DNA of 63,186 bases, the filler included, from Psammoneis japonica (taxonomy: Eukaryota): assembly GCA_008632985.1 (NCBI GenBank). It is 3 parts of 3 records of this genome, joined end to end, with 100 filler letters (N's around TTAATTAATTAA, not from the genome) between each part and the next. Parts side by side here need not be neighbours in the genome. Positions count along the whole stretch, not along the records: positions 1 to 23,108 come from QPGO01000434.1; 2 more parts are not named here. One strand, written 5' to 3'. Positions 2,425-46,133 of this stretch are shown here, in pieces. A program made the position numbers and the translations under genes. Positions within the stretch are counted from its first letter, which is position 1. The number at the start of each line of letters is the position of its first letter. Under the pieces are notes generated by a model that saw only the letters and a list, made by a program, of their open reading frames with translations, was not told where the DNA came from and searched no databases.

Positions 2425-5400
2425 ACGCTGAAACGTACGCATGTAGGCCCTACGTGCGCACCAGCACCCCACGATGGCCCCCGTGAAGATTTTCATCTGT
2501 TTTTTGTCCGTTCGTGCCCACAGGGGCACGAAAGGAGGCTACGTAGGACTGCACCAGCAAATCCTGTAGATGCACGTTTCCATGCCAACAAGATTCATGA
2601 ACCTCTCAAACGAAAAGAGACAATGGCGTCGTTCTGGATCAACGCCGTAGTTGCTGCGTCTGAAACCGCAGCGCACCGCTTTTCTGCTCGTAGACTTGTA
2701 CGCTGTCCTGGTACAAAGGTCATTGCATGCATAGAGTCTACGATGAGGTCACACTGAAGGAAGAATTCTCGAATTTGAATTCTCAGCAATCAACCGAGTT
2801 TGTTTACTTTCTATTTTTTTTATGCTGCCAACCAAGTCTTACAATCACACATCCCTGATTCTACCTGCGTGAGACGACACTGAGATTTCAGTCCATGCAT
2901 AAGTTCACTTGCACCAATGGATGAATCGGCGTTGTGCTCGGTGACGACGTCCGAATCAGATTGGGTGGAGCATTTCAATCCAACAGAGGACTTGAATTTT
3001 TGCGACGAGGATCTCCACTTGATTGAGGACAGCTTGATGGATGAGCATGATAGAACCGAGCAGTCAAAGGACCGTCCAAAATGGAAAGTGGACAATGATG
3101 GGAAAGATGTTAAGATTGCCTTTAGCCAAGCTCCCCAAAAGGTGTGGGAGACGGCCAAAGCCGAGATTACAGAGTGTCAAGGTTATTCAGAATGGTTCCA
3201 AGGACGCAAGCATGCATTGACTCCTCTGGTTCTGATGCTCAAGTTTCAGTTCACCTTAGATTGGACAAAGCGCGAGAGCAGAGGCAGTCGCATTGGGTGT
3301 GCCTTGAGAAGCATCTCGACACGGCATCTGGTGTCGAAGATTTGGTGTGTCAAAATGATGACGATGATGCGGCACCGGCTCAGAATGACAATGATGATGC
3401 CACTGCACAATCCAATCCAATGACTGTTGGTGAAGGAATGCTGCTGGCTCAGAGGACACGATGATGATGACATTGTAGATTGGGCTGAGTTGGAAAAACA
3501 CTTAGATTCAGACATGGAAGAGGAGGAGCGGATTTCTGTTATCGAGAGTCGCCGTTGGGAAGCAAAGGAGGCGTTGAAGAAAGCAAAGGAAATTCTTAGT
3601 GATGCAGTTGACTCCACCAAACGAAATGAGTGTGCGAGCCAAACTAATGTCGGAGTTGAAAGCTGGCGAGCACAAGGATCTCCTGAAGGCGTTCGTCAAA
3701 CAAATGGGGTGGAAGGTTTGTAAGACGCACAAGGCAAACCTGAAAAACGCAGTTACGTGGCTAGAGTGTACCCCCGCCTCTCGACCCTACATCGTGCTGA
3801 ACAAGGAGCAACTGAAGGTAAGCATGTGTAATTGCTGCCACTGACATTATTTTACTATGGATCTAACCGAGTCGCTCCGAACCATTATTTGCTGACAAAG
3901 GCAAAATACCGAGAATGTATTAACAGCACGATGCCGTCGAGTGTGACAAAAAACGATGACTTCATAGCGATTCTGAGCGGTGAAGTCTCCGCACCAGTTG
4001 CAAGAGATGGCGATAGTGAGCCAAAAACGCCACTGGAAGCAATGGTGAAAACACTTTCTTCCACCACTCAAAGGTGAGGCGGCGGAGCTCTGTAGATTGG
4101 GACATGAGATGGAAGAACAGTGCGGAAAAGATTTTCTTGGTGTTGCAAGCGGCGAAGGAGTGCGACTCGAAAACAGATCCGTATTTGTTGCAAACAATCT
4201 CTTCAGAGCCGGCCTGCTACAGAAGCAAAATCGCCCTTATCAAAAGGACAGTCCAGACTTCCTCTGCACTGGAACAATAGACGATAAGCGAATCGTAGCG
4301 GTTGTCGAGATGAAGGCGCGTTGCAAATCTACTACCGCCGCCAAGGAGCGTCAGCGCATTCCGAAGTTGGTGAATTTTCGTTGTATCATGTGATTCGCCT
4401 GAGTTACGCAAGTTCATGCTTAAACGTTCAGAGGCAGTTCAGGTGAGCTGATGCACGGAATAACTGTTTGACACTGTCGTTGTAACGGTAACTCACCTCA
4501 GTCTCCACGACTTCCTCGCTACAGTGCGCTCATCATGCAAGCACCCTTGGAGTCAACCACGTCATTCTTGCCACTGGAGACAGAGTAGGCCTTACAGCAA
4601 TGGTGGTTATTGAGTGCTCCGACGAGTTCCTTGAAAACTACGAAAAGTGCATCAACGACATGTACGAGTCGGCATTGAAGTGGGCGTACGAGGAGGGCGT
4701 CGACATTCCAACCGAAGAGCTCAAGGCTGCTGTGAAAACTGCACGAGTAAAGGTGGACTATGAGTCATTTATGAAATCAATTTACTTTTGGAAAGAACTG
4801 ACGAAGCCTCAGTACTTACCACTCCCACCGTGCGAGAGGATCATTCCCATGCAGGATGCGTACTGGAACAACACCAAGCATGGGTCGGACGTCAAAACCC
4901 AGTACTGCCAAAACCTATCAGCCCCAATTCCTGTCACATCTGCCGGAGCTAAGGCATACGACCGCATGCAAATGACAGCACTATCCGACATCCACAAAGG
5001 CGCTACCATGTTTATTACCAAGGAAGATCTCAACCAGTGCAATTCCCTTCACGACTTCAGAGACGATGCAAAGCACAAGATGAGCTTCAGAAAAGCACTC
5101 CTTCGATTGTCTAAGTTTTTCAAGAAGCTGAGCCAGCAAAATCTCCAAAGTGGAATTGGTTCTCCTTCGTCTTTTACAGGGATCGTTACACCATCACCAG
5201 CAACTCCAGTACAGCCGCCGAGGTGGATGCGCGGTGAAATTCAAAGGAACCAACCAATTTTGTAGCAAAAGGAACTGGAAAGTCTCCCAAGCGCTCTCAC
5301 CTAGAAGCTCTACTGAAACCAAAGGACAGTTCTGAAGAGGTCCCTTCCAAGCGATTCAAGAGTTGTCGGGTGTACCTGTGTTCAGAGCAAATGAAAACAA

Positions 5401-5897
5401 TGGAAGTAAGAAAGGGAGTGGAGCTTTGGCGCGATGTATCATGTGCGACTCCAAGACACATTGGTATTGCTCTGGCTGTCGTCAATGGTATTGTTGCGAT
5501 AGTCCCCGTCCGCAAAGCGCTGGAGTCCCATACTTTCAAGATTCGTCAACGTACCGTGATGGGAAAAACAGGGATCGACCAATCGCCGGCGTGTACAATG
5601 CTTTATGCACTGTCACCCATCCATTGTGAACCAGGGATAGTAATATGTATTTGTATTTAGTGAATATATCATCTTTTTGACCACCGGCGTAATTGTAGTA
5701 CTTTGGAATATCATTTGTTGACAAGACGAGCGTTGTGTTGATGCTTTATCAATGAGAGCCGGTGTTTGTTTTGCACGTACAACTCGGTATGAAACCTACA
5801 GGGGCGTCGTTCGTGCCCACAGGAGCACGAACTTTTGCGTTCGTGCCCACACGCGCACGAAACTATCACGCGGGATAGTAGGCCTACGTTTCGACGT
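2425..5897 (+). mobile_element. Putative DNA transposon carrying YqaJ-like nuclease and piggyBac-like C-terminus
   Basis: Imperfect inverted ends (ACGCTGAAACGTA at ~2425 / TACGTTTCGACGT at ~5885). Palindromic subterminal motif GTTCGTGCCCACAGG(G/A)GCACGAA near both ends (~2510; ~5809 and a variant at ~5839). Ends are approximate and no TSD was established. Confidence 0.5.
2917..5629 (+). pseudogene. Disrupted, intron-containing transposon protein: YqaJ/lambda-exonuclease-like PD-(D/E)xK domain + piggyBac-like segment + Cys-rich zinc-binding tail
   Basis: Motifs SEWFQGRKHALT, LGHEME, DSPDF...VEMKAR, Q|CAHH; then YWNNTKHGSDVKTQ (cf. piggyBac YN..MGGVD..DQ); tail CIMC..KTHWYCSGC...C. In-frame GT-AG introns 3818-3900 and 4443-4524; several frameshifts/stops. 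Confidence 0.6.
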
Positions 5898-6012
5898 GAC
5901 CAAAGGGTTTCTGCGGTCGCGACACGACGATGATCTGTACCGCTATCACAAGAACCGCAACTCTAACGTACCTTCTGCTATAAGGCCGTCGCTCAACGAA
6001 TACAAAAGCGTA

Positions 6013-7983
6013 ATGGCAAATCGATACCCTAACATGCATCCGCCCTATCTGCCCTGGTCTGACAGAGAGCACTGTCATGCCACAATGCCTCCGCCCTCGC
6101 CTTTCTTCCCACCATGGATGCACGGATATGCCGCACCGCCAGATCCATTTACTGTTCAAGAGGGACAGCCACCATGGAGACCGCCGCCGCATCCCCTTTT
6201 TTGCCCACCACCTCGATTTGATTTGGAGAGGAAAATGAGCTCTAAACATAGGCTCTACTTCTATCACAACCGGTTTATTTCGAAGCAATCACCGTTCTGC
6301 CGGTCTCTTCTCGCTCAACCAAATGCAACCGAGGACAGCTTGCGTACTCTATCGCGTCAACTTCTACAAGATGGAATGTTCAACGTTTCTTTAGATGGCT
6401 TGTGTGAGGTTCGCGATCCATTGGCTCTTCATGATTATGCTCAGTATTACCAGTACGACCCTGTTCTCTGCCGTGCTTTGAAAATCGCTTCGGACAAGGA
6501 GCTATTGAAAAAGGACAGCTCTGCTCCCTTTAAAAATTCGCCATCGACAGGTTCAACGGGGGAGCCAACGCCACACACCCCTTTGCCTCAAAACAATTCC
6601 ATGGATTCTCCGCTTCCGTTGCGGCCCAAGCTCGCCTCTCCCACAGCGCCACCTCCCAAGCCAATTCGTGACTCAGATTTCTTATACTTCTCTGGCCATT
6701 TGCGAGTATCAAAATGGTGCAGGCTTACTTCAAAATGCGTCGACCAAGGCATCTCTGAGGATGACATAAAAGAAATATTCCAGACGCTCTACAAAAACAA
6801 ACTTTTCAACGTCAATGCTACAGGCCATTGTAGGATTATCCCAAACTTGCTTCCCCGCCTTGAGAAATTTACTACTCGGTTGGAAGACTCTCCCATGAAG
6901 CGGGCTTTGCAGTCGCATTTAGATGCCGCATCAGGGCTGAAGTCTCAACATGCAGCTGCTAAACGGTCGCGAGAACCACAGGAAGAGAGCGAGAGTATTG
7001 CCAAGCGAAAAAAGCCTTCTTCTGAACAAGCACTGGTACAGAGCAAAGTTTATAAAGACAACGCATATACTGCTTGCGTCAGTGCCGAGGTGAATCCAGG
7101 ACAGCATTCGCCCATGGAAACACCAGAGAAGGCCACGAGTGCGGTTCGTACGGGGAGTTCAACGGATTGCCAGAGCAAGGCTCGGAATGTAGATTGTCAG
7201 AAGACTCGACAGCGGTGCGAGAAACACAAGCCTAGCTCTTCCCGAGAATCTTCTGGTTGCGTCCACGCCAGCAAGAATGCAGAAAGGAAATCAGCCCCAG
7301 TTTCACCTGTGGTGGAGATGGCTGCCATTCGAACGAGCACCAGTACGGCAGGGGATTCGGTCATCGAGACTAAAGCAAGCAATAAGCAACAGCGAAATGC
7401 AGCGGTCGACGAGTACGAGGTGGACGCTGCCAATGAGAAGGTGCAGCAGTGCGAAAATTCCCAACACGCTCCGCTGAACCACAGTGGCTTGCAGCACTCT
7501 TATCTACAGGGTGCTCGTCATTTCCACGATTTGCAGGACTCCGGTAGACCTCGTCGCCGAAAACGAGGACGCCGGACAAGAAAACGGAGAAAGGTGGGTT
7601 CTAACAACAAACTCGACTCAAGCACCGACGTGGCTGCCAAGGGCCAAACCAACACCGTCATGGAGACAGATGCACCATTTGCCACTCCACGTAAGCCATA
7701 TCCGGAACGTCACAATGTGGATGCTGCTGTCGAGACGGAAATGATGACGAAACAAAAGCGAGCCCCCAATGATAGCAATATCGACAAAGCTGACGAGGCG
7801 TCGACGAGGGACTCAGCCTGTCTGCATTTTGGAGATAATGGACTGAATTGTGAATCACAAGACAACAACATGCAGAGACTCATGAAGGTTGCCAGAAAGC
7901 TCAACCTGCAGATAGATTGGACATCGGATGACCAATCGGAAGCCGCTGATGAGAGCTTCGGTTGTCACACTGTTTATTTGTAA
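6013..7983 (+). CDS. Uncharacterised protein (Pro-rich N-terminus, duplicated ~75-aa domain, low-complexity linker with basic NLS-like patch, conserved C-terminal motif)
   Basis: Long open frame (ORF 5752-7983). ATG 6013 (MANRYPN) chosen because it matches MANRIPN in the paralogue at 17645, and the upstream ORF part overlaps a TE end. Normal TA/Tyr content. Confidence 0.75.
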   Translation: MANRYPNMHPPYLPWSDREHCHATMPPPSPFFPPWMHGYAAPPDPFTVQEGQPPWRPPPHPLFCPPPRFDLERKMSSKHRLYFYHNRFISKQSPFCRSLLAQPNATEDSLRTLSRQLLQDGMFNVSLDGLCEVRDPLALHDYAQYYQYDPVLCRALKIASDKELLKKDSSAPFKNSPSTGSTGEPTPHTPLPQNNSMDSPLPLRPKLASPTAPPPKPIRDSDFLYFSGHLRVSKWCRLTSKCVDQGISEDDIKEIFQTLYKNKLFNVNATGHCRIIPNLLPRLEKFTTRLEDSPMKRALQSHLDAASGLKSQHAAAKRSREPQEESESIAKRKKPSSEQALVQSKVYKDNAYTACVSAEVNPGQHSPMETPEKATSAVRTGSSTDCQSKARNVDCQKTRQRCEKHKPSSSRESSGCVHASKNAERKSAPVSPVVEMAAIRTSTSTAGDSVIETKASNKQQRNAAVDEYEVDAANEKVQQCENSQHAPLNHSGLQHSYLQGARHFHDLQDSGRPRRRKRGRRTRKRRKVGSNNKLDSSTDVAAKGQTNTVMETDAPFATPRKPYPERHNVDAAVETEMMTKQKRAPNDSNIDKADEASTRDSACLHFGDNGLNCESQDNNMQRLMKVARKLNLQIDWTSDDQSEAADESFGCHTVYL

Positions 7984-8336
7984 CGCGGCGCTTTATGTTG
8001 CTGCTGCACTATTGGGTTTGAAAGCACCGACAAAGCGATTCAACCACGTTGGCGTTCTTTATATTGGCTTTGCGCAATGATCGGAGCTACAGAAGTATTG
8101 GTAAGGAAGAAGGTTCGGCCTCGTCGGAAGATTCACGGACCTTCGTCCACGATTTCAAACGTTGTAAAACGAAATTGAGCTCTGCTTGGGATTTTGTGCA
8201 TCACGACAAGTTCGAATCTTTGAATTCGAGTTCATCTATCACGAAGTGCTACTGTACAATGATGGGAAGCGATTCAGAAGAAATGTCATACAAGAGTTTC
8301 TAGAGTATCACTACGGTTACTCGAGCTATAGAGAAA

Positions 8337-9608
8337 TCAAGCCTTGACGGGACGAACGTAAACGTCCACATCGATGGGAGCCCACACATTGGTGCGATTG
8401 CCGTCCTGTAATTCGATCCTGTATGCATTTCCTTCGTCCCACTGCTTGAGGACTTTGCCGCGCTGAAATTCCCCAACGTTGGCTTCCACAATGGTCCCAA
8501 CCGGGAAACGCAAAGGCGCATCGGCACGACAGGCCATGAACCCGTTGCGATAGAAGTCATGATCCAAGTGTTTGCCGATAAAGACAAAACGACTCTCGCG
8601 CTTCTCGTTTTTCTTCCACTTGGCTGTTTCATCAAAACCACCCGAAAAGAGCATACCAACTCCCTGGAAGACGAACTTTTGGTTCATGCCCTTAACGGCA
8701 ATGACACCCTTGTAGCGGTAGAGGTTGGCTCCGTCTTGCGTAATGAGGCGCTGGATCCAGCGCTCCAGCATCATCATGTTTACGTCGCCTTCGACTTTGA
8801 CTCCGACAGAAGAGACAGTCTCGTCGTGCTGGTGTTCTTGATCTTCGTCCAAGAACTCTGGGTCAAAGTCGAGGACGCGACTAAGCTCAAACGCCTGAAT
8901 GTTCAAGAGGTCCTTGGGGTTCACTTGACTGTGCTTGGTGCGTTGAATCGTGGCAGTGGGATTGAGCGCCTTGAGCTCCTTCTCAATCTCGGCAAGTTTC
9001 TTGTCTGTAGACAAGTCGATCTTGTTGAGGAGAATCTTGTCGGCAAAGGCGACCTGTTCCACTGACTCGTTTTCGACACCCTCCGGTTTCTTCTCTTGGA
9101 GGCGCTCCATAATGTGCTTGGCGTCGACTACAGTAATGACACTATCGAGCCTGTACTTGGATTTGACTTCGTCGTCGATGAAAAAGGTCTGGCACACAGG
9201 CGCAGGATCTGCTAGGCCCTGCGAAGTAAGAGCAAGTCATGAGAATCCTGTGCTCAGTTAGGCCGCTTCCAGAAAAAGATTTTCACGTACCGTTGTCTCA
9301 ATAATGACACCCTGAAAGGTCTCTACTCGAGTGTAGAGATTCTTGAGGGCCTTCACCAAATCCCCGCGAATGGTGCAGCAAATGCATCCGTTCATCACTT
9401 CAATGACTTCTTCGTCAACATTCTCGGACAAAACCTTCTCATCGACTCCCACTTCACCAAACTCATTCTCAATGACGGCAAACTTCATACCATGGCTGGT
9501 ATCCCTGAGGATATGGTTGAGTAGAGTGGTCTTGCCTGATCCAAGGAATCCAGTGAGGATAGTCACTGGAACGACTGGCGTCTTGGCTCGTTTCGAAACA
9601 GGCGTCAT
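8337..9608 (-). CDS. COG0523/CobW-family (ZNG1-like) G3E metallochaperone GTPase; 2 exons (9608-9291, 9218-8337)
   Basis: GFLGSGKTTLLN Walker A, NEFGE, GCICC metal motif, ETT|GLADP split by a 72-bp GT..AG intron (9290-9219), NKID, CobW_C-like RYKG...VFIG. Confidence 0.95.
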
Positions 9609-9897
9609 GGCGCTACTACAAAAGCCTCGAATTGCAACAACTTTTGGTTGTGAGAGCAGATTGTGAGGTGTCTTTTGCATTGGATCGTCTTTTTGGCGCC
9701 TTTTTGGATTTTTAGGCTGAAAAGGAAAAGCCTCATGAATATGAAACAATGGCCTTGAAAAGGCTTTTCGATGTCGATCACGCTCAAACAAAGGCCTCAG
9801 GCTTTTGCTCAAACCCCATTGTGCGCCCACTTTTTTTTCAATCAATCAATCGCACACAACATCAAAGTTCGTTCAGCTCACGTTGCCCGCAGGAACA
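9609..9897. promoter_or_regulatory. Probable bidirectional promoter between CobW-family and nitroreductase genes
   Basis: Only ~290 bp separates two divergent start codons. Confidence 0.55.
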
Positions 9898-10698
9898 ATG
9901 ACTTCGCGAGACATGGTAATGGCAGGCACCGCCTTTGTTCTAGGGAGTGGGGCATTGTGGTTTCACCAGATCCGTCATCGGAGCAAGCAGGAAAGTACAA
10001 AGGAGATATCTTTTGAAACTACTACTACGACCCATCACGACGATGACCTGTCGGTTCTCCCGTGCATTCGCAATCGTCGTTCCGTCTTTCCTCGTCAGTT
10101 TCTGCAGAATCCTCCTCCCCTCGATGATGCCATCGTTGAATCCCTTCTCGAAGCCGCTCTTTGGGGACCCTTCCATGGAAAATGCTTTGCTGGCTGCCAG
10201 CATCCTGCGAAATTCGTAGTTCTTGGTAAAGAGAGTATGATTGAAATGCAGAAACTAACCTTAGATTACTACGACCGAAATTGGGAAAACGTCGGATGGG
10301 GCTCTGGGAAGCGTGGAAGTCGGGATGAATACGAGGCTTGGAGAAAGGTGACCGAGGACGAAATCACGGGGCGTTGGGCACCGTGCGCGCGAATGATTGC
10401 CATTGTCATGCGCCGGCAAACGGGGCCGAAACGTTTGCCCGAGTGGGAAGAGGCTGCGGCCGTGGCGGCCGCTACGCAAAACATGCACTTGCAAAGCACC
10501 AAATTTCCGCAGCTGGCGTGTTACTGGAGCTCGTGGCACGATGCGGCGAGGGACAGTGACGAAATGAAAGAGTTTTTGAACATGGAACCAGAGGACAGAT
10601 GCTTGGGCTTTTTTATTATTGCGCATGCCAAGAGGAACAGCACCAAAGACCGACGTAGGCGCGACAAGTCCCTCTTAGCTGTCGAATGGCGTCGTTAG
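9898..10698 (+). CDS. Nitroreductase-family flavoprotein (YdjA-like) with N-terminal hydrophobic anchor
   Basis: IRNRRSV..F, LLEAALWGPFHG, AAVAAATQNMHL, YWSS, FL..EPEDRCLGFF motifs of the nitroreductase fold; intronless; first plausible ATG at 9898. Confidence 0.88.
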   Translation: MTSRDMVMAGTAFVLGSGALWFHQIRHRSKQESTKEISFETTTTTHHDDDLSVLPCIRNRRSVFPRQFLQNPPPLDDAIVESLLEAALWGPFHGKCFAGCQHPAKFVVLGKESMIEMQKLTLDYYDRNWENVGWGSGKRGSRDEYEAWRKVTEDEITGRWAPCARMIAIVMRRQTGPKRLPEWEEAAAVAAATQNMHLQSTKFPQLACYWSSWHDAARDSDEMKEFLNMEPEDRCLGFFIIAHAKRNSTKDRRRRDKSLLAVEWRR

Positions 10699-13600
10699 AG
10701 TAAGACACCGGCGCAACGTTTCCTTAGAATTTGCCCCGACACCACCTCTATTTGCTTAGGGGCTGCTAGCTTGTTGGCTACATGGCACGGTGAATATATC
10801 GCATTAGTAAAGCGCCGCGTAACAATAAACAGCATCGTCCCAACAGATTTAGCTCTGTTATTTGTTGTTCCCAAAAACACTTGCATCACGCATCGATCCA
10901 CACCACCGCTTGTGTATTTTCAATTTCTGTCCTCGTCACATGCCAATCAAGTTTTGAACATAGCGAGCGTTCTCTGTTGTGTGTGAGTCACCTGATTGTT
11001 CGCTGCCCCACCAGCCTCAATGGACAGTCACTGCGGAGTGAGACTCACGATTTCCTTTGCAGGGTTTCAGAAACTTTGTGGTGGGCAAGGGCCTGATGTG
11101 TTGGGGAGGAGGAGTTTGCACTGTTGACAAACTCCCTCCTGCTGACAAGCATCCTCCTTTGAGGAGGTGGTGTGACAGCCTCCAGGACATTTCTTCTGAG
11201 GTTGTCAAGAGCTCGGTCTCTGAGTCTGCCGGCAAAGCCATGATGTGGATTGGCTGCTGGTCTTGCTGTCTTACATGGTTCAGAGATCTGGGGTGCATTT
11301 GCAGCACTTGGTTTCTGACAGCCAACACAGCACCCAGAAAACTGAACCTCTGTTGTGCCCCCCCTCTCAACAAACTTCCTGGGTGTCCCCCAGAGATGTT
11401 CAAGAATCTTGCAGAATTTCTGGAAGTGCTCTTGATGAGCCTGACCCCCTTCAGCTTCTTGTTCAATTTGTTTAAAATGGGGGCTGCTTTTTGACACACT
11501 GCAGCAGTTCTCAAGTGTGTTTCAACATCTGGGGGCACACTTCATGGTTCCTCTGGCAGTTGCCAAAGTTGCCACTTGAGTCTTCTGTGCTTCTTGTGGA
11601 ATGAGCAGCAAAGAGCAGCAAAATGAGCCAAACTCACCACACTTTGTTCCCCAGAGCAAGATTTGCTTCAAACAACTCCAAATTTGCCATGACACACAAA
11701 TCTTGATTGTCCAGATGCATGTCAAATCTGAGGACAATGGCAGTTTGCCAGCTCTGGCACTTTAAGATCAGCCACACATGATTTGATCATGTTGCATCTT
11801 GTGAGTGATGCACAAGAGCAAGTGCATGCATTGGGCCACAGCTGTCATCAAACAAAGACAAAACTGATTCCTCAAAGAAACAGGAGCAGATGAAGAGGAG
11901 GGGAGACAAGAAGATCCAACAATCAAACAGTCTTAAAGAGGAAATCCATTTGGCTGGCATTGCAAAGACAAAAGTTTCTGAGTTGAAAGGTCTCTGGTGA
12001 CAATGTGGGCTCATGGTGTCCAGCAAGAAAGCTTGTTTTTTGGAGATGCTGTGCAGCAGAAGATTTGTTTGACAGGATGAAAAAGTCAATGATGCAGTCC
12101 ATTGGTGAAAAAGTGCAGCAAAAGAGCTGCTCAAGTGGGGTCAACAAAAGCCATGACACTGGCTCATGACAGAAGCATGGGTGCCAAGGATGTCTGCTGG
12201 CAATGCCTGACATCTTCAGAGCCAGCTTTGGTTGTTTGAAGCATCATGTGAAGCATGAAAAAAATGCAAGACAATTGCCAAATCTAATGGAAGAACTTGC
12301 CCTTGCTCATGACAGATGCTTCTTCCCAAAGAAGGCACTCAGCTCCTTGGCAGACCACATTGGGAGGGCTTTTGGCAGAAGCCTCTTTAAAGTGGAACAT
12401 TGACAGAAAACAACAAGGTTCTGCAGTTCCAAAAGTGCCCCAATTTTCTCATGAGGAGTGCCAAGTGTTCTCTCTCTTGAAGCACTGCAGAGCACATTTG
12501 TCAAGAATCCAAAAGACACAGACACATGAGGACTTGGTGCAAACACCCAGGAAGAGCAGAGGCAAAAAGAAAAAGAGACAAAAGTGGGTGACAGATGCCC
12601 AAAACTCAAAGCATCTGAGCCAAACAAAACACATGCCACATGACATTTCACAGGACCCAAAAGAACTTCCTGCCTTGCTGCTTTTCCATGCATGATTTGG
12701 CCTGGGATGTGAAGGCAGCAGCAGCATGTTCTGTTTGGCAACTCCCACGCAGCTGGATGATTGACAAAAAATGCCACAACTTCAAGATTCATTGTGAACA
12801 ATGCAAGAACCTTCATGTTGTCTTTTTTTCATGCAGAGGGGTGTCAAGTGTAGAGTTTCAGGGTCAAAGATCTCCACGTTCGTCACACAAAATCTCAAGC
12901 ACATGGGGCACTGTGCCCAGAAATCTGTGCAAAAAATCTTCTCTTGGCAATCTAACAAGTTTCACAGTCTCAACAACTGACTCAGTCACAATGAAAGCAA
13001 TGGCCATTCTGTTCACTCACAGGGCAGGACAATGGACAAGTTGGTTGCACCAAGATTCAATGGGTCTGTCAACATGAAATGTTGTGGTGGGGGGACAAGT
13101 TCAACAAGCCACCCCAAACACTGTGCATGGTGTGCTGTGCACAATGCACAAAGGCAGTGGGGGTGGTGGTGCCAGCACCTGCAATGATGCATCAGCAAGT
13201 GTGGTGTCATCAAGGAGTGCAGATGGAACAGCAGGTGGGGGTTGGCAAAAGTGAGCAAAGCAAGACGGAAACAGCAGCAGCTTGTTGAGCTTCAGAGCAT
13301 GCTGTGATGGGCAAGCTCATTTGTGGGCACTGTGGGCAACTGGGCAATGTCATGGCTGAGACTCTTGGGGGCAATGGCATGGCTGACACTCTGAAGGCCC
13401 TGCAGCAGAGCAGTGTCACACCCTGGCCCAAAGCAAGCGGGGGTGGCTGGCTTCCAACCAAGGGGCCTTTTGGCTGGGGGGGGGGGGTTCGTCATGAGCA
13501 AGAAGACATCAAAGACTTGCAGATGTGGGACATTTGAGGGAGAAAGCAGAGCAGATGTCCCCAGGAGTGTGGAGTGGAAGATGCTGGCATGGCGGGGTTG

Positions 13601-13817
13601 GGCTGGCAGCCAAAAGAAGAGGCAATGGGCAAAGCAGCAGTCATTGCTGGAGAGCCCAAGTGTGCTCAATGGCAAGTTGGCGGGCAGCGGCAAGCCCATT
13701 TGAATGGTCAGCAGAAAAACAATTCAGGCAAGCCAGCAGTTGAAGAAGGTGATGGCTCGTGAGTGGCAGTGTCAATGGCGGCACACGGCATGTGTGTGGG
13801 AAGATGACGAGGGGCAG

Positions 13818-14489
13818 TGACAGGATTTGAACAGGATGTAGGTGCGCGCGAAATGTCGCGCGCCATTTTAGTTTGCCGCACACAGTTTTGTGTGCTCTTT
13901 AGTTCCGCGCGTACGCGCGCGATGCATTTTGCTTTTGAGCCACACGGCTCACAAGAACAACACCCTGATCATCACAGAAAATCTGTGGCACAGATTTGGG
14001 GTTCAGATTTGTTACAGATTTTCAAGGGGTCCGCAGAAACAGTTGCAGATTTTCAAAAAGCACAAATTTTCAATGATTCAGCGAAAACTGGGGTTGATTT
14101 TTGCTGGAACTCGGCTGATTCTGCGATCTTAGAAGAACCCTCCTGCAGGCCCGGCACGTTAAAAGCAGGCCCGGCACGGTCTGTGTGCACCCTGCGTGCA
14201 TTTGTGCTAAAGAGGGGGAAGACAGACGTTGCACAGATTCCAGATTTTCGGTTCTAAAAACTTGCAGATTTTGTTCGGCCCCTAAAAAATTCTTACAGAT
14301 TTTATTTTTCGGCACAGACTTTCTATGATAATCAGGGTACACCGGCAACAGCAGGGCCCTGGCCCGATTGTGCCGACTTGCACGTCTTTCGGCTCCTGCA
14401 ACGGTCTCTGAGCGGAGACTCATCTGCTGTCCAGACAGTGGCAAGGAGTTGTTGTTTGAATTCTTGCCATTTGCCTTCAATTCTTAACA
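13818..14489 (+). repeat. 5' LTR (contains MITE insertion)
   Basis: TGACAGGATTTGAACAGG...TTCTTAACA; matches the 3' LTR apart from the 375-bp insertion and small indels. Confidence 0.92.
13963..14337. mobile_element. MITE with ~25-bp TIRs and TA target duplication (Tc1/mariner-type signature) nested in the 5' LTR
   Basis: Left CA|CCCTGATCATCACAGAAAATCTGTG, right CACAGACTTTCTATGATAATCAGGG|TA; internal repeated (A/G)CAGATTT motif; absent from the 3' LTR. Confidence 0.85.
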
Positions 14490-15456
14490 GATTGACAGTC
14501 TCGCTCATTGTCAACCCATTGAGCAAACGCCATCATCATCGTTGATTTACCGACGACGCTTTTTTCAATTCCGCGTGGACCTCCGTGTGTGTTCTGCGCA
14601 TGCATCGGCAAGTCTACGCGCACTCAATGCCAGGCATCGGCAGGAATTTAACGTCACCGTCAAGTCTCCTTACAGCTGGACATCTGGATTGATTGCACTG
14701 CCTTTTGTTGCTGAAGACATGCATTCAACGGTCACATCCAAGTCTGTCCTTAATCCTCATCCCTTGATGTGCCCATTCAACGGTTGACGGTCAAGAACCC
14801 CACATGTTCAAAGCTCTTCGTCGCTGAAGACACATGTGTGCATCTTCACGGGCAAGAACTTGAACCCACTCTTCAGACTGCGGCTTTGCCACCACTCTAC
14901 AAGCACACCGAGTCCATTGTGCCTGATCTGCCCCGGACCACTGGTGCTCTGCAGTTCCACTGGGTCCATGAGGACGACTGTGAGAGCAAGCAGCCGTGAT
15001 TGCAGCCTGCGTTGGGGCGAGGGTAATTTCCCACATTTGTTTGTTCGTCCACAGCGCCTGGCGCCTGCGTCAACTGGCCAGCCTGATCGGGAAATCCAAC
15101 TGACATGAAACAAGAACGGTTCGGGGGTCTTGTCCACCTCCAGTCAGCTTGCCTGCAGGGGTTTACAACCCGCTGCTCCGCTCGCAAGCAACCCAAAGCG
15201 CCGCCAGCTGCGGGTTCGGACGTGCCGGCACAACTCTGCGGACCGGACAGGAAGCTCAGCAATTAACTGCGAACGGGTGGCACAACCCGGCGGCTTCTGA
15301 CTTGTGAGACAGCTCAAGTTTTCAAGTCAAGTGTCAAGTCGATCCCAAGTCATTTCAAGTCTGCTCTCCATCAAGTCGATCCCAAGTTGTTTCAAGTCTG
15401 CTCTCCCACTCCAGTCCACTCTCCAACTCTGGTCCCGGCACCCAATCAGTTGCACC

Positions 15457-16735
15457 ATGGTTCTCACCAGACAGCAACAAACCGATGGTTTTGAGCACGT
15501 TGTTGGAACTGTGCTTGCCCAAGGTGCTGGAAGCCCTCTTCATTTGGCTTTGACCCATGACGGCACGGACTCGTGCCAAGAACTGTTCACATTCACACCT
15601 TCCCAAATTGACTTGCTTGAGTGCGACAATGGCACCAATGTGATCCCATTGCCCCGAGGTTATAAGAACATGTTAGCAGCTCTAGCCAAGCTGTGCATTG
15701 TCAAAGCACACAAAGGCCTTGATGTCGCCAATGACTCCTCGTTGTTCACACATGATGAGTTCCTTGCCTGCCGCCTCAGCCCTGACTGCATGTCTTCTGT
15801 GTCCATCGGCAGCTCACCTCTTGCACCCCCGCATGTCACCAACTCGACCAAGGCACGCGACCCAGTGCGTGACTTCAAGCGAGGCATCAAGCGCAACCCT
15901 GCTGCTTTCACGGCTCTCAAATCCGACAAACAGTGGCACACTTGGCACACCTCACGAGGATGGACAACGCCACAGAGCTTGCATCGTCAAGGCCGTCAAA
16001 GATCATGACTGGAAAGTGAACGGCAACCCCGAGCTCACTAAGTTCATCTGCTCTGTCAACAACGATGAATGCGAGGAAGTCCTGGCCTGCAACGACATCA
16101 TGAATCACATTGAGCAAGAAGACAAAGACACTGCTGTTTGGAAATTTCGATGCATTGTGTCACACGAAGGACCTCTGAAGCCTCATGACCCAACCTGGAA
16201 AGGCTCAAGCTACAACATCATGCTTGAATGGGAAAGTGGGGAGATCATGTCTGAGCCTCTTGCCATCGTCACCAAGGACGACCCTGTCACCTGCGCCATC
16301 CATGCACGAGAGAACGGACTTCTCGACACTGATGGCTGGAAGCGGTTCCGCGCCATCGCGAGGCGTCAGAAGAAGCCATCCCACATGGCCAACCAAGCCA
16401 AGCTTCGCTCCTTCTGCACTGCACCTCGCTGCAAGTGCGGATGCAAAGTTCCCCGGAACTGCAAACATGCCATGTCCCTGGACGAACGCAATGGCAACCG
16501 CAAATGGGGAGATGCAACCAATCTCGAGATGGGCCAACTCGATGAACGCAAAGTCTTTCATGACTGCGGGCCCTCCGAGTCTTCCACTCCTCCTGCGGGA
16601 CACAAGAAGATCCGAGTGCACCTGGTGTGCGATGTGAAACATGAAGGCTCCCGCAACCCTGCTGACATTCTCAGCAAGCATTGGGGTCACTCCCAAATCT
16701 GGGACCTTCTCCGTCCCCTTGTGTTTTGGAACTTC
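15457..16735 (+). pseudogene. Copia gag (5' part) fused by deletions to integrase-RT linker, RT start and RNase H end
   Basis: gag FKRGIKRNPAAF..LK...W..W; pol EEVLAcNDI, WKFR.I..HEGPL, KGSSYNIMLEWESGE, DDPVTCAIhA, NGNRKW, KKIRVHLVcDVKH, then NPADILSKHWG. Deletion junctions near 15950 and 16648. Confidence 0.9.
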
Positions 16736-16787
16736 ATTCCATCCGAAGTCGAATCTGTTTCTGTGACTCCTCAAGCAAACTGGGGAG

Positions 16788-17066
16788 TGACAGGATTTGA
16801 ACAGGATTCAGGTGTGCGTGAAATGTCGCGCGCCATTTTAGTTTGCCACACACAGTTTTGTGTGCTCTTTAGTTCCGCGCGTGCGCACGCGATGCAGTTT
16901 GCTTTCGAGCCACACGGCTCACAAGAACAATGACAGCAGCCCGATTGTGCCGACTCACACGTCTTTCGGCTCCTGCAACGGTCTCTGAGCGGAGACTCAT
17001 CTGCCATTTAGACAGCAGTGAGGAGTTGTTGTTTGAATTCTTGCCATTTGCCTTCAGTTCTTAACA
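16788..17066 (+). repeat. 3' LTR (279 bp)
   Basis: TGACAGG...TTCTTAACA followed by TSD GGCAG. Confidence 0.92.
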
Positions 17067-17644
17067 GGCAGCAGCTGACAGCAGCACAACAAGAAGCTGG
17101 GGCCAGCCAGAGGAGCCAGGTGTGCCAACATCTGCGGCTGCAAGATTTTCAAGCAGCAAATGCAGCAAAAAGGTTCACAGTTTCAAGATGGACCACGTAA
17201 AAGTGTTGCAGCATGGGTTGGAAGAGATCGGATGGAAGGCATCATTTTTTGTTCATTGTTCGGCAACAGAATGTGCGATCGAGTGCAGGAACAAGAGAGA
17301 TGAAAGACGGCATGGCTTTGGTGTCATGCATGGGCACTTATGGCTTGTACGTTGAACGTACTGTACCGCTCCGAAATGAAGGTGATACAGGAACGAGTAA
17401 CATATTTAATGCATGCCCGTTTATTTTATATTCAAGTATGAATGTACCGGACTTCGAAACCAAAAACGCAACCTTCAAATCAAACTCGACTCCGTTCTGT
17501 CGTCTCGTTGAGATGCATTGATTGTGACAATGAAGCAGATGATCTTTTGTTCTTAAAACGCGTTCTATTTTGACGATGATACCGATGACGGCAAGCGAAA
17601 TAAGGTGCGAAAGGCGTCCCTCAGAAGCGCAGAACAGCAATGCT

Positions 17645-18544
17645 ATGGCAAATCGGATCCCCAACCTCTGGTTGTCCAACATCTCTCCGTCCGGGCCATC
17701 TCCCTCCCCTTCACAAGGGCTGCTCGGGCAGGCAATTGTGCCATCATATCCAATATCAGCTCGAGCGCAATTCATCCGACAGCGGCCATGGAGTCTACTG
17801 CCGCATCTACATGTGTCCCCACAACATGGTTTTGATTTTGAGAAGAAAGTGAGCTCTGCTCAAAGACTCTACTTTTATCCCAACCGTTACCTTTCGAAGC
17901 TATCACCGTTCTGTCAGTCTTTTCTCCCGAATGTAACCGAGGACTGGTTGCGTTCTCTAGCGCGTCAACTTCTCCAAGACGGAATGTTCAAGGAGTTGGA
18001 TGGCGAGTGCGAAGTTAACGATCCGGTTGCTCTTCATGCCTATGCTGATTGGTACAGCTACAACCCTGCTCTATGTCTCGTTCTAAAGATTGCTGCGGGA
18101 AAGGAGCTCGAGAAGCAGAATCAGAAGGGAGCGATGACGAACTGGACCGGTAACACAGGCAAAGTCGCTTCTGAGCAAAATTCTCAAGACAGAGCAATGT
18201 CTTTTCAGTCCACCAATGCTACCAACACTTCCGAACGCCGCACCGACACCATCATGAATAGTGCCGAGCATCAGAGTGCGGTTGCGACAGTTGAGAAGGA
18301 AATTCTGACGAAACAAAAGGAAACATGCAGTGATGCCACTATGGACAAAGATGGCGATGTGGTAACGGAGGGATTAACCAGTCGACAGCAGAAAAATGAG
18401 CTCGACTATAAGGAGTTACAAGACGACAACATGAGGAGACTAAAGGAACTTGCCAAAAAGCTCAACGTGCAGGTAGATTGGACGACCGATGATGACCCAG
18501 AAAGCCTTACTGAGAGCTGTTTGTGTCGCACTGTGTATTTGTAA
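17645..18544 (+). CDS. Uncharacterised protein, shorter paralogue of the 6013-7983 gene
   Basis: Shares RLYFY.NR..SK.SPFC.S.L...TED.LR.L.RQLLQDGMF...DG.CEV.DP.ALH.YA..Y.Y.P.LC..LKIA..KEL and C-terminal D.NM.RL...A.KLN.Q.DWT.DD...C.TVYL. Confidence 0.8.
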   Translation: MANRIPNLWLSNISPSGPSPSPSQGLLGQAIVPSYPISARAQFIRQRPWSLLPHLHVSPQHGFDFEKKVSSAQRLYFYPNRYLSKLSPFCQSFLPNVTEDWLRSLARQLLQDGMFKELDGECEVNDPVALHAYADWYSYNPALCLVLKIAAGKELEKQNQKGAMTNWTGNTGKVASEQNSQDRAMSFQSTNATNTSERRTDTIMNSAEHQSAVATVEKEILTKQKETCSDATMDKDGDVVTEGLTSRQQKNELDYKELQDDNMRRLKELAKKLNVQVDWTTDDDPESLTESCLCRTVYL

Positions 18545-18829
18545 TACAGATGTTGCTGCGTATGCACTATTTAGGTGGAAAATACTGATGCATATCTTAA
18601 TGTCAGCAGCCCACGTTCATTCCAATTAATAAGTTCGTGCGGACTGCCGCCTTCTTGCCTATATAGTCTTGGTTTTATGAGAATGCCCTCTCTTCGGCTA
18701 TGCTTTCATGGCGAGCATTCATTGACATTATATTTAGAGTATATAGTCTACCTTTAGATAGAAATACTGTAGAAACGGCCGTTCGATCATCGGTAATGTA
18801 TGGTGCGATCTTCAAAGCAGTTACTTAGT

Positions 18830-19743
18830 CTACTGCGTTCTATCAGCAGGAGTAAAAGGACCTTTCGAAGGATATTCAGAAAGCTTGTCTACACGAACAC
18901 TCCATTGATGAACGGTGTGATGGCTTGCATGATTCGTCACTCCCTCAACCACCTCGTCTCCCCAAGCTACGCGAAGGACAAATTCCAAGAATGGAGGGAG
19001 TTCGAGGTTCTGAATTTCAAGTGCCGGTGTTGCGCACCAGTAAGCACTCAATTTGGTTTCATGATGACAAACATAAAAGAATACAAAAAAGACAAGGCCT
19101 TGGACCACTCGTAGGGAAGATAGAAGGAACAAAACCAAAACTTGGCACCGAAGAGGTACATTTCAACACCGCAAACGAGAAGCTTGATGATCCAATGGAT
19201 ACGCAAGTGGTTCAGGACATCAGGATCTTTCTCCTGAGCGATATCAAAAAGTCTCCATTCTGGATTTATAAAAGACTTGAGGAATCCTTGAATAGGGGTT
19301 CCCGTTAGCATGAAGATATTCTTGTCCTTGCTCGTAGCCATGTACTGATGGTGAGTAAAGTGCTCCTTTCGGTACAGATCATAGTGAAAGTAGAGCTCGG
19401 GAGAAAACACCAAGTATCGCATAAAGAAGTTTGTACGATTACCTGATAGATAGTGGAAAGCCTCGTGGCAACAAATGACATTTCTTGGATACAAAACAAG
19501 AAGAGCAAGGTAGTACAAGAATCTTCCAAAGTCTCCGTATTGTCCGGTGGAGTAGAAGTATCCTGCAAAATGGAGCAATGTTCCTGTTACCACGTATCCC
19601 AAAAGATGATGAGAAGAGTCTTTCTCGTAGGAATAGATATCGTCGTGATGGACGACGCGAGTCGATGCTTTCTTTTCGTTGGGTTGGTTTTCAGCTCTGT
19701 CATCAGGGCGGCGCTTTGATGGACTTTCGACGGGAGTGCACAT
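18830..19743 (-). CDS. Membrane fatty-acid desaturase/hydroxylase superfamily protein (one frameshift near 19085)
   Basis: His boxes HEAFH and EHFTHH in ORF 19048-19743; third box HASHH in overlapping ORF 18830-19138; frame switch next to an A homopolymer; hydrophobic segments. Confidence 0.75.
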
Positions 19744-19925
19744 GAGTGTCAGTTGACAAAAGAAGAGGGGAAAAAGTGTTTTGTCTTCTTGTTCTAAGTT
19801 CTTTATGACGCAACAACTGTGATCAGAAGCGAATAATCATTCGAAAACTGCTTTGGTCCCTGCACACATGCAGGGTCGCTAAGCCGTTTTGCAACCATCG
19901 CGCTTTGTCGGCAAAATTAGCTCAG

Positions 19926-21570
19926 TCACGCTGACGGCGTTTCAGGACTGACTATACTGAAATCACACGTATGAGGTACGGCAGAAGCAGTCAGGCGGGT
20001 CAGTGGCGCCTTGGTCGGGGGTGCAGCATCCACGCCGGGTGGGTGCTTCTGTGGCATGTTTTGTTGCCACCACATCAAGACAGCAACATTGAAATGGAGC
20101 ACCACCATGGCAGGCAACCATCACTGTGACAGCCATTGCTGTGACAAGAAGAAGTGTGAGATCCCTGTGATGCAAACCCCACATCAACAACCAAGGCAGT
20201 GAGACAGAGGGGGGTTTGGCTGCCAGCCGCGCGCACTTTGTGCGCAAAATGAGCTCGGCCACTCTGCTTCAGGGCTGATTGTGCTGAAATCAAATGCAGG
20301 ACCAGACACATGTGAAGCCAGTCATGTGTTGAAACAGTGTGCCAGCAGGTTCTGTGTGCCAAAAACTTCCAAGACTTCGAAGCTCCTCATGACCAAAGCC
20401 CCCCGAAGATGTGGAAGGTGGCTGGACCATCCTCGCCACAAGAAAGCAGCCAATCAAGGCAGTTGCCCAACTTGCATGCTTTGTCCTCTTTGTCATCTCC
20501 AGAGTTGTTGTTTTCTGTGACATTCCAACCTTTCTGATGATGCTTTGCTGGCTGGGCAGCCACGCTGAGTCTTGTCTCTTTGCGCTTTTGGACAAAAGCA
20601 CTTTGTGCTCTCAAGAACAGAGTTTTGTCACTCTCTTTGTTTTCACCAATGGATCCTTTGACACCCATCTCCTGGGCAGCTGTCCTTGCAAGACTTGCCC
20701 AAACTGGCTGAATTTGTGGCTTTCGTTTGTGGCCTGTTTCATCATCTCCTCCTTCGTCTCATCCTTGGCACACTGAATGATGCTGGCTTCCCAGGTGCCA
20801 CACCCCAAGGCGAAGATTCCCTTCTCTCAGTGTGTCATCCTCTGGCTTTCTTGTCATCAGCACTGGAACTGGCATTGCTTGAATCAGGTGAGCTCAAGGC
20901 ACGGCTGCTCTCACAATGCTTGTCTTCATCTTCAGATGTGTCGCCACAAACATCAGACCAAGAGCTCATGTCATTGAGGCACTGGCACAAGAAAGTCAGT
21001 TGCTCCCTGCACTTTCATTGTTGTTGTTGCCATTGTCCATGTCACATGGGCAAGGTGATTTGGAAGCACTGTGGTCCTTGTCCTTCTTGGCTCGATTCAA
21101 ATCATTGAGACCAGGAAACAACACAGACTTGGAGCTGGGCTGAGGGAAGCAGTCATCAAGGCATTGACTTGATTTTTCCTCCCAGAACATGTGCACTCAT
21201 TGTTGTTGGTGCTGCCCTCAGCACTGTGTGGATCAGGTGAGTTTTTTGTCTCACTGCTCTTGTCACTGCTGTTCTCATTGTCAGATGTGTTGTGGAGTTC
21301 AGAATGAGAAAGCTTGCCATCAAAATGACCATCTAATTTCTGGCTTGGACTCCAGAACTGCATCAAAAGTCTCTTCCTCCCATGGCATGATGCGACCTTT
21401 TTGTCATTGTTGCTGTTGCTGCACTCTTGCTCATGTTGAGCAACATATGATGTGGCAGACTTTTTGGGAAAAATTGCAGACAGGCAACTGCCTTTGCTGC
21501 TTTCTTCACAATCAATGGCTGGCTGGTGCTGGCCACCTCCAACAAACACAAACGCTCAACTCAGGAGTTT
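19926..21570. mobile_element. Decayed TE relic, TpA- and CpG-depleted
   Basis: Composition signature; abuts and appears to truncate the 5' end of the next gene. No family motif recognised. Confidence 0.5.
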
Positions 21571-22495
21571 GTTGAGCCATGTGGTCAAAAATCGGACCAC
21601 TTGCTTGGATTCGGAGTTTATGATTGCACTTTCGAGATTTCTCGGAGCATCTCAGTTAAGTCGACTGCTGGATGAGCCTTGTTACGCTATGCTCTACCGG
21701 GTGATTGGGAGCGTTCCATCGCTCGAACATCTTTCCTTTCAGCGACGCTCTACTTCCACACTTGATGGTAACCTTCAAGTGATTCCAAAACTGGACACGC
21801 TATTCCAAGAACTCGAGGGACATCCGTCACTGACATCTTTGATCATCGCGGGTTTTGACTGCTTTGTTCAGCCGGAATACGAGGCACTTCTTATCATGCT
21901 AGAGCACGCTTCTTGTGGGCTCTCGGAGCTAAGCGTTTACGACAGATATATCCAGAGAACGACTGACTGGACTTCTGAAAATCAGGCTTCAACAAAACCC
22001 CCCGTTTGGAAAAGCTACCTATACATTCGCCATCACCCCATCGATCTTCTACATTGGGGTTGCCAACCGCAAAGGATAGCGGCCCTATTACTAGCAGCAA
22101 ACTTCGACTACTGGGGCTTCCGAGGGTACAGAAAGTGGCGCTCCCTGGGGAGGATGAAGCGTCAAGGGAGTCGAGACTTGCAAAAAGCCGAGACATGTTG
22201 TACTGTATAGTAGAACGGCACCCGAGACTAACAGATACTATGTCGTCTGTGGCCGAGCTGGACACGACCGGGAAGATCCTGCAACTGCTTGATCGAAACC
22301 GCTCAGGACGTTTCTTGTTTGTTGACCGGGAGATTTCTGCTCAGTTTCCAGACTCGCTTTGGCCGCTTGTCCTGGAACGACAACATAGGCAAAGGCACGT
22401 TTACGTTCAAATACGATTTCCTGGGCGCCTTGCTTCGGCAGGTTGATGCATTGTATTGGTTGCTACAAAACATTGGTGACCGGATCGGAGGATGA
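21570..22495 (+). pseudogene. LRR/RNI-like diatom-family gene, 5'-truncated and frameshifted
   Basis: LRR-like LEHLSF, LTSLII, LSELSV segments and C-terminal LLDRNRSGR...LWPLVLER...DALYWLLQ motif spread over three frames. Confidence 0.55.
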
Positions 22496-22631
22496 ACAGC
22501 CAGATTATAATCAGTAGTTCCATGGCGTCAATTATCTTCCTTATTGGTATTGTCTAGAAGTTGTTTATTTGTTTCGCTTGCTTCACAAGCATAAACTGTT
22601 GATCGATGTGAGTATGCTCGCCGTTTTAAAA

Positions 22632-23108
22632 TCATACCTGCAAGTGCTCCACTCGTCTGACTCCTTTCTCTCGCCAGAGAGCAGAATCAACCGTGTGGTC
22701 GTTTGCGCTGAAAGTAAGCGTGGGCTCTTCCTCAGCCATCTTGGGCTCGACCTCACCACCAAAGGCTCGTTGAAAGATAGAGGCAAACTGCTCTAGCATA
22801 CTGTTCTTCTCACCAGGAACAATCGACCTGTCATCACCCAACGCCATTGCCCAGAAACTTACTAGGTCGAGTGGAGTCATACGTGACGTATGAAGAGCAA
22901 AATTGTCCATCATTCGTGCTCCAGATTGTCGGGCTACGCCAGGAAAACCAAGCTCCAAAGCGCTGGCTACGCCATACATTTTCACGCTCACTTTCAAAAG
23001 TGGAGCGGTAAAAATACTGGCATATTCTTCTCGCGCGATACTTTCAATTTTATCCATGCAAGCATCTTTGTCAACGATTGGCATGCTCTTCCATTGAAGA
23101 ATATCTAG
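22632..23108 (-). CDS. 3' part of hypothetical protein cut by the contig end
   Basis: Open frame of >=150 codons with normal composition reaching towards the gap; no motif recognised. Confidence 0.45.
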   Translation of the reverse strand, partial: LDILQWKSMPIVDKDACMDKIESIAREEYASIFTAPLLKVSVKMYGVASALELGFPGVARQSGARMMDNFALHTSRMTPLDLVSFWAMALGDDRSIVPGEKNSMLEQFASIFQRAFGGEVEPKMAEEEPTLTFSANDHTVDSALWREKGVRRVEHLQV

Positions 23109-23208
23109 NNNNNNNNNNNNNNNNNNNNNNNNNNNNNNNNNNNNNNNNNNNNTTAATTAATTAANNNNNNNNNNNNNNNNNNNNNNNNNNNNNNNNNNNN
23201 NNNNNNNN
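23109..23208. other. Artificial contig linker (N-run + TTAATTAATTAA + N-run)
   Basis: Six-frame stop spacer; identical structure at 46034-46133. Confidence 0.97.
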
Positions 23209-26200: not shown

Positions 26201-26370
26201 CCAACCATCTCTCTGCATGTCGAGCTTTCCTCCTCCGCCATCCCTCCATCACCAACTCCTCCTCCCGACCGTCCGTCCGCACCCTCGGCCAACCCTTTTT
26301 CTCTCCCTCTCCCAGCGCGCTCCGCGCGTCCGCGCGCTCCCTCCGCCACCTATTTCCCCAACACCACAAC
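23209..26370 (+). mobile_element. Non-LTR retrotransposon of the restriction-like-endonuclease group (CRE-like), decayed, 5' end lost at gap
   Basis: RT motifs KAPG, LRPIGVGTALRR, QFGVG, LLD.SNCFN, GFAQGCPLSP, ShInD (YxDD), GIKLNPSKT, FLG.PIG; LP..LGG; CCHC finger CPC...DHAFAC; RPA(D) and IDITV RLE motifs; very C-rich sense strand. Confidence 0.9.
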
Positions 26371-38850: not shown

Positions 38851-39134
38851 AGCTGTTGACTGCGGTAAAACTCGGGACTGCGACAGCGCAGCGGCAATTC
38901 AATGCCGATTTTATCATGGATCTCCAAAGGAGACATTTCCTGTCGAAGGCAATGACCTAACATAAATTGTAATCCACCACTAAGATATTTTAAAAATTTT
39001 CGATGACCTTTTGAATGACCAGCATTTGAAACAAGAGTCATGCGGTGGTGGTTGCCACACAAGCTTCCATTTTTTTTGCGGCGCAGTTACCATCGCATTT
39101 GATCCCTCCATTTTGCAATCAAGTCCGAGAGACC

Positions 39135-46033: not shown

Positions 46034-46133
46034 NNNNNNNNNNNNNNNNNNNNNNNNNNNNNNNNNNNNNNNNNNNNTTAATTAATTAANNNNNNNNNNN
46101 NNNNNNNNNNNNNNNNNNNNNNNNNNNNNNNNN
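46034..46133. other. Artificial contig linker
   Basis: N-run + TTAATTAATTAA + N-run. Confidence 0.97.

Follow-up and report, generated by a model that had tools for sequence, protein, structure and literature searches.

The question raised by this locus is whether the few TA dinucleotides left in a repeat block of the diatom Psammoneis japonica are a random remnant or owe their survival to the bases around them. The window, by which we mean the whole stretch of 63,186 nucleotides analysed from assembly GCA_008632985.1, consists of three pieces joined by artificial linkers (N44-TTAATTAATTAA-N44, at 23109-23208 and 46034-46133), which contain TTAA and were masked from all TA counts. Two-state segmentation found nine TA-poor blocks in the window. 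One of these, at 10962-13838, is a TA-erased, CpG-eroded repeat block with 2.8 TA and 7.0 CG per kb; the TA-rich blocks of the window have 28 to 83 TA per kb. Exactly eight TA steps are present in 11040-13810. The original prediction, made by inspection of the sequence, was that survivors are mostly TTAA or CTAA, and six of the eight are indeed of this kind: TTAA at 11472 (in TTTAAA, 11471-11476, the slowest hexamer in our fits), 11762 (TTTAAG, 11761-11766), 11933 (CTTAAA, 11932-11937) and 12387 (TTTAAA, 12386-12391), and CTAA at 12284 (TCTAAT, 12283-12288) and 12952 (TCTAAC, 12951-12956), all read on the plus strand. The other two, on the same strand, are not YTAR: CTTACA (11270-11275, TA at 11272), which lies at the 7th percentile of predicted rate, and TGTAGA (12849-12854, TA at 12851), which is TCTACA on the other strand and so belongs to the TYTA class. 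The chance of at least six of eight being TTAA or CTAA is 5.9e-5 against their share in unexposed genome DNA (0.117) and 0.007 against flanks with the same composition as the region itself. TYTA/TARA accounts for seven of the eight, and in predicted rate all eight fall in the slowest 20% and seven in the slowest 12%. The same bias, also noted at the outset, recurs in 33400-38800, inside another TA-erased block (33243-38865), where 9 of 12 TA are TTAA, CTAA or TTAG and all 12 are TYTA/TARA.

Part of the block is a decayed multi-copy open reading frame on the minus strand (11846-12568) and belongs to a repeat family. In a relative of 70% identity (L002) there is a SAP domain (Pfam PF02037, E 6e-14), while the window copy gave no Pfam match for itself. 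Rates could not be derived from the relatives of this stretch, of which there are three copies at 69-70% identity, TA-poor themselves. Two of the three window TA in the stretch that they cover are not conserved in them; the TTAA at 12387, however, lies in a TTTAAA kept in all three distant relatives and is thus an old survivor. Short-read contigs from the same sample, which are for that reason not biologically independent support, cover every bin of 3200-23100, and the pieces at 10752-11464 and 20066-23100 match with zero substitutions; the latter overlaps a further TA-erased block (19978-21618, 1.2 TA per kb). As TA-poor pieces are matched letter for letter, the scarcity of TA was not produced by the assembler. 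A half-depth read contig over 12004-12795 differs by 22 letters and 12 gaps and represents a second allele. Among the allele differences listed inside 11040-13810 none is a TA change, so that the erasure seems older than the allele split. The best explanation of the eight TA is that they are the slowest contexts remaining in an old, saturated block.

The direction and specificity of the loss were read from repeat families E, A and B, which together gave 388 sites and 6,020 site-copy observations. Family E is an element of 7.5 kb whose direct terminal repeats are 278 bp long; pieces of it lie at 14362-17059, and CTTAACA, which had been noted in LTR ends, is present at 14483 and 17060. Its copies range from 2 to 32 TA per kb. 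The two least-mutated copies served as anchors and were excluded from the outcomes; where both have TA, the other copies have TA 1,499 times, TG 1,487 times, CA 999 times and CG 5 times. TT, TC, GA, AG, CC and CT come to 19 in total, so that 2,486 TG and CA stand against 24 other products, and transversions of A to C or T amount to 0.2%. Because one site may be TG in some copies, CA in others and TA in the anchors, the direction of change is loss of TA. The T:A to C:G transition is almost confined to this dinucleotide: A to G was found at 30% after T, versus 0.9% after A, 1.4% after C and 0.7% after G in family E, and at 0.3-0.9% at AA and GA in families A and B (0.7-0.9% at AA). Among the AA sites of family E, where counts are small and non-independent, the order is AAT 1.8%, AAC 1.2%, AAG 0.6% and AAA 0.3%; this order mirrors the rule at TA at a low level and may reflect slight leakage of the TA process. 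A loss hazard near 1.0 per site at TA, against about 0.01 at other adenines, is something that repeat dating and annotation must allow for.

Families A and B bear on whether copies were mutated separately. The family A copy in the window (46134-51043) was aligned with its relatives as 7 copies, 90-93% identical, and the family B copy (51043-62516) as 11 copies in pieces 85-93% identical. At shared mutated sites the median agreement between copies in TG versus CA was 49% in family A and 54% in family B. Copies agree about half the time, as expected for independent events, and each copy was thus mutated on its own after insertion, in family B at least largely so. The median concordance of 0.69 in family E reflects shared ancestry, and confining this family to those 139 of its 258 sites where the anchors have TA reduced this non-independence without removing it. 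For families A and B, 249 of 357 sites passed the flank filter, and 240 of the 357 were inferred without any surviving TA. Sites that are uniformly TG or CA are absent from the counts, an ascertainment effect, and the alignments are pairwise to one copy. The rates are historical ones from a single genome. Neither element strand is favoured (bias factors x0.94-1.09). Same-strand clustering showed no excess in 15 distance bins, with no positive z above 1.7 and one negative value of -2.9, and processive or strand-coordinated action was rejected on this ground. The mutation of TA is post-insertion and site by site, strikes either strand equally but one strand per site, and affects only TA. CpG decay in the same blocks is a separate, slower process: C to T is found at 7.7% at CG and 0.5-1.0% elsewhere in family E, and copies with 2-4% CpG loss have already lost 27-77% of their TA.

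To these sites (139 from family E and 249 from families A and B) we fitted a competing-risk model in which a hit on either strand removes the TA, with exposure set per copy and bootstrap intervals taken over sites. The pooled per-strand factors for the mutated A were, at +1, C 1.60, T 1.63, G 0.71 and A 0.54; at +2, A 0.65; at -2, A 1.48 and T 0.73; at -3, T 0.65 and A 1.33; and at -4, T 0.74. Family E and families A and B agree in direction for +1, for A at +2, for A and T at -2 and for T at -3 and -4. The rate at which a TA is lost depends on roughly three bases to its left and right, and the fitted hexamer rates, per-context values of the kind that the original prediction had proposed to derive from family alignments, span 23-fold, from 0.48 for TTTAAA to 11.0 for AATATT. 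Protection reaches two to three bases outward, a T at -3 and an A at +2 each multiplying the rate by 0.65, so that TTTACC and TTTACA survive where CTTACA and ATTACA do not. The additive form of the model errs by up to 0.08 in tetramer shares; GTAA/TTAC is over-predicted (0.25 vs 0.17) and TTAA under-predicted (0.16 vs 0.22).

The flank effects divide into a part that acts on the duplex and a part that chooses the strand. A at +2, equivalent to T at -3 when the complementary strand is read, reduces total loss (log -0.44 [-0.58,-0.35]) but has no effect on strand choice (-0.05 [-0.15,0.07]), and T at +1 similarly raises total loss (+0.41; strand choice +0.03). C at +1 acts mainly on strand choice (+0.72 [0.62,0.83]), and small residual effects on this choice were found at +2 and +3 (G +0.22, T -0.20). 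Hence loss is slowed equally on the two strands when a T-run precedes or an A-run follows the TA, and is sped up on both by ATA or TAT, whereas a C just 3' of the A makes its strand the mutated one. The original prediction had offered an enzyme or a structure-specific process as the source of the selectivity; selectivity of both sorts is in the data, as a duplex-level part and a strand-choice part, and the two are not exclusive. An adjacent CpG also slows TA loss on both strands, by x0.27 for CGTA and x0.56 for TACG (39 family sites), though for TACG in family E alone the interval spans 1 (0.44-1.10). In the genome sample described below, the Mantel-Haenszel odds ratio for survival beside CpG was 2.6 in TA-poor blocks and 1.0 in TA-rich DNA (63 sites). 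To probe whether methylation underlies the protection, copies with little CpG loss were compared with those with more; the factors were 0.81 and 0.68 (192 and 418 observations), a difference in the expected direction but confounded by subfamily.

A systematic sample of the genome (39 x 10 kb) shows that this bias in surviving TA is real, genome-wide and not due to drift. The 385 kb sampled contained 171 kb of TA-poor DNA (4.0 TA per kb) and 214 kb of TA-rich DNA (41.5 TA per kb). TA-poor blocks that were examined are multi-copy or bear reverse transcriptase, while Pfam-bearing host genes sit in TA-rich blocks. Of the 681 survivors, 363 (53%) are YTAR, a class with a 17% share in unexposed DNA, and hardly any RTAY is left (30 of 681 versus 30% expected). 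The YTAR rule is thus upheld as an enrichment but is a partial label: TYTA/TARA is the better description (479 of 681), and TTAC/GTAA and CTAC/GTAG roughly match or exceed CTAG in survival, varying by data set. The bias is present in CpG-poor and CpG-rich blocks alike. Rates derived from the families place 69% of the survivors in their slowest fifth and predict survival with an AUC of 0.82, versus 0.72 for TYTA/TARA and 0.68 for YTAR; outside the DNA of the training families the AUC was 0.83 (591 survivors).

It might be argued that drift, GC-biased conversion, ancestral composition or selection accounts for the survivors. The eight TA of 11040-13810 are few, and avoidance of TAA and TAG in coding DNA lowers the baseline for TTAA (its ratio is 0.59 relative to all TA-rich DNA and 0.38 relative to non-ORF DNA). 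The ranking of survivors nevertheless persists with the non-ORF baseline. Loss simulated on TA-rich DNA without regard to context yields 16% YTAR and a rank correlation of -0.27 over ten tetramer shares, whereas the family rates reproduce these shares (rho 0.96); survival is not proportional to ancestral tetramer frequency. Furthermore, only 24% of TG, CA and TA sites in the same blocks have Y..R flanks, and A is stable at AA, CA and GA. We give almost no credence to an explanation of this type, and the assertion that the bias is not drift holds.

A process that converts TpA to TpG or CpA has already been reported. Mettrop et al. (bioRxiv 10.64898/2026.01.13.699255) described such hypermutation in Bigelowiella natans, where it affects NCLDV and virophage DNA that has become integrated, and observed in mutation-accumulation lines that the change arises de novo, at a rate raised about 1000-fold, in only some lines. 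The main text of that preprint gives no flank rule; it treats the enzyme as unknown and suggests ADAT2. As far as that report describes its system, the two have in common the same change, restriction to TpA, both orientations, foreign or repeat domains and a footprint poor in TpA and rich in CpA and TpG. They differ in that our host, a diatom, belongs to another supergroup, that multi-copy repeat families are struck and that our rates are historical. Our literature search, whose coverage excluded subscription journals, found no paper on TA loss or a flank rule in diatoms, and this preprint was the only relevant report. A quantitative flank rule makes the enzyme question testable, and its application to the 231 de novo mutations of Bigelowiella would tell whether two distant lineages share one machine.

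None of the systems compared, as their cited sources describe them, matches the whole rule. RIP, the repeat-induced point mutation of ascomycetes, likewise hypermutates repeats on both strands by transitions at a specific dinucleotide (PMC2621366). RIP, which is triggered through RID by homology pairing during the sexual cycle, is opposite in direction and base: it makes TpA from CpA and TpG, whereas the diatom process consumes TpA. Fungal RIP was rejected here, as TpA falls tenfold and the anchors have TA where copies have TG or CA. Also in contrast to RIP, TA is retained in the window by a pair of gene duplicates that are 74% identical. This old duplicate (6164-6503/17778-18108 and 7710-8013/18271-18571, 70-74% identical) keeps both TA and CG, and duplication alone, at such divergence, is thus no trigger of TA loss. 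Deamination of 5mC at CpG affects these blocks too and likewise yields TG and CA but is separate and slower. The human ADAR1 deaminase domain (hADAR1d) edits the DNA strand of DNA/RNA hybrids at TAG (94%) and AAG (81%), with 5' T the best neighbour (PMC5389660). ADAR resembles the diatom process, on that account, in a duplex substrate and 5' T, and two PF02137 genes are present in the genome; unlike with ADAR, TAG is slow in the diatom repeats (+1 G 0.71), AA is spared (0.9%) and strand bias is absent (0.94-1.09). ADAR editing of RNA, cDNA or hybrids was rejected since 3' G is not favoured, AA is spared and no sense-strand bias is seen; the lack of strand bias and of same-strand clustering speaks more generally against RNA, cDNA or long stretches of single strand as the edited substrate.

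On balance we favour a distributive A to G mutator, probably a deaminase, acting on double-stranded repeat DNA. A targeted mutator would convert TA to TG or CA in repeat or silenced domains and leave the survivors as a residue; the palindromic TA step would be engaged as duplex DNA, via shape or a symmetric read-out, one adenine would be flipped and deaminated to hypoxanthine, replication would fix G, and targeting may be by chromatin state. A duplex substrate is suggested by flank effects that are equal on both strands, although an enzyme working on single strands could by chance have preferences that look mirror-symmetric. Local melting was rejected as the cause: fitted rates do not track nearest-neighbour stability (rho -0.11, p 0.19, n 136), and hexamers of A and T only include both the best and the worst survivors (TTTAAA, 27 low and 38 high; AATATT, 0 and 54). 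This independence makes read-out of shape or by a protein likelier than melting; A-tracts are stiff. From sequence, a lesion on A is indistinguishable from one on the paired T. We put forward more tentatively that diatoms, and perhaps Bigelowiella, may own a natural double-stranded DNA adenine deaminase that is guided to silenced repeats, reads TA with the shape of about 3 bp to either side of it, is impeded where a (methylated) CpG lies next to the TA and rewrote close to half of this genome. It would be the A to G counterpart of RIP and of double-stranded DNA cytosine deaminases and, if real, a new genome-defence chemistry useful for base editing. The flank rule states the requirements on such an enzyme: AATATT preferred over TTTAAA about 20-fold, the strand of TAC chosen, AA spared and action slowed beside CpG.

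An unlikely but worthwhile alternative is that a TadA- or ADAT-type deaminase acts on DNA made transiently single-stranded in silenced domains, by bubbles, R-loops or replication forks, with the symmetry due to chance or to strand exposure. The genome has an ADAT2-like gene, and ADAT2 is the candidate of Mettrop et al. (10.64898/2026.01.13.699255). TAY exceeds TAR on the mutated strand, as YAY exceeds YAR for an engineered TadA-8e variant (PMC12528748), and adenine base editors are reported to prefer a pyrimidine at -1 (10.64898/2026.07.20.739671). TadA base editors (ABE8e-YA, ABE3.1) and ADAT2 thereby share A to G, a 5' pyrimidine and this 3' preference with the diatom rule in the accounts cited. 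The resemblance of the engineered TadA, so far as it is described, covers the +1 term only (C 1.60, T 1.63): at -1, T is far above C, with CA 20-fold under TA. Moreover, the editors are engineered, use a single-strand substrate and accept YA, whereas the diatom process shows strict TA, mirror-symmetric +2/-3 effects and protection by CpG. TACG is slow here and is the natural TadA site. Same-strand clusters and strand bias, an indirect test of this proposal, are both absent, and rates bear no relation to duplex stability (rho -0.11, p 0.19). The amphioxus ADAT2, reported to prefer GAA and hairpins (PMC10354150), was likewise a poor fit to the rule.

The data may also be read as the trace of a base modification of TA in repeats (an oxidised thymine such as 5hmU or 5fU, or methylated adenine), placed as a silencing mark by a duplex-reading enzyme and later miscoding like 5mC at CpG. 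We regard this as unlikely, although it explains the duplex symmetry, the distributive single-strand hits and the domain restriction equally well; TA and CpG loss also co-vary across family E copies (rho 0.51), a correlation confounded by age and subfamily. The products are, however, almost pure transitions (19 others vs 2,486 TG and CA), and to our knowledge no TA-specific mark of this sort is known. Far less probable is an error-prone polymerase of the Pol eta type in patch repair of methylated repeats. It would work on duplex DNA near deaminated 5mC, and Pol eta-linked mutation is reported to strike A in WA motifs, AA included (PMC4686820). That signature is missing: AA is mutated about 30-fold less than TA (0.9% vs 30%), and A to C or T at TA is 0.2%. 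Copies that have lost 2-4% of their CpG are missing up to 77% of TA, and TA next to a CpG is protected, not sensitised. The AA rate largely refutes this proposal.

For the favoured A to G mutator, the genome offers several deaminase genes. A PF00383 profile search gave 9 matches, of which 6 loci were read; from their motifs we take these to be dCMP deaminase, TadA, ADAT2, RibD and two guanine-deaminase-like proteins. Genome searches with PF00383, PF14437 and PF02137 gave no standout mutator gene, and the deaminase genes that turned up resemble housekeeping genes or are widespread in diatoms. Two genes of the ADAR/ADAT1 family (PF02137) were seen, at G000:C79:344200-345700 (L148) and G000:C40:112300-113800 (L147). 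Homologues of the former (G000:C79:344.5-345.4k) occur across diatoms, PF02137 being the sole Pfam domain listed, and one of them matches solved ADAR domains weakly; this diatom-wide, stand-alone ADAR-type gene is one candidate mutator. An endonuclease V gene is present and, as a repair route for inosine, counts against the inosine route; no match to MPG/AAG was found in the genome search. At G000:C79:87900-89300 (L143) a zinc-deaminase domain shares one open frame with a downstream segment that, by motif, resembles the N-terminus of a 2OG-Fe oxygenase. dCMP-deaminase matches of equal score lie on two contigs (G000:C41:506240 and C317:55748). Together with the near-identical loci L059, L060 and L096, the first two of which were left out of the fits as duplicates of the third, they suggest haplotig redundancy, and such pairs could give recent mutation spectra.

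A TA-poor block at 23209-26350 carries, on the plus strand, a reverse transcriptase remnant (PF00078, E 2.7e-6, under the cut-off) and has largely retained its CpG (54 per kb). A TA-rich host gene contains a 608-aa open frame (28579-30405) with 36-nt tandem repeats at 29410-29517 and a ricin-B-type lectin domain match below the Pfam cut-off. Finally, one copy of an inverted repeat pair (2066-2290/42739-42943) is TA-erased, with 1 TA, while the other has 9, which indicates that TA loss is local to the domain.
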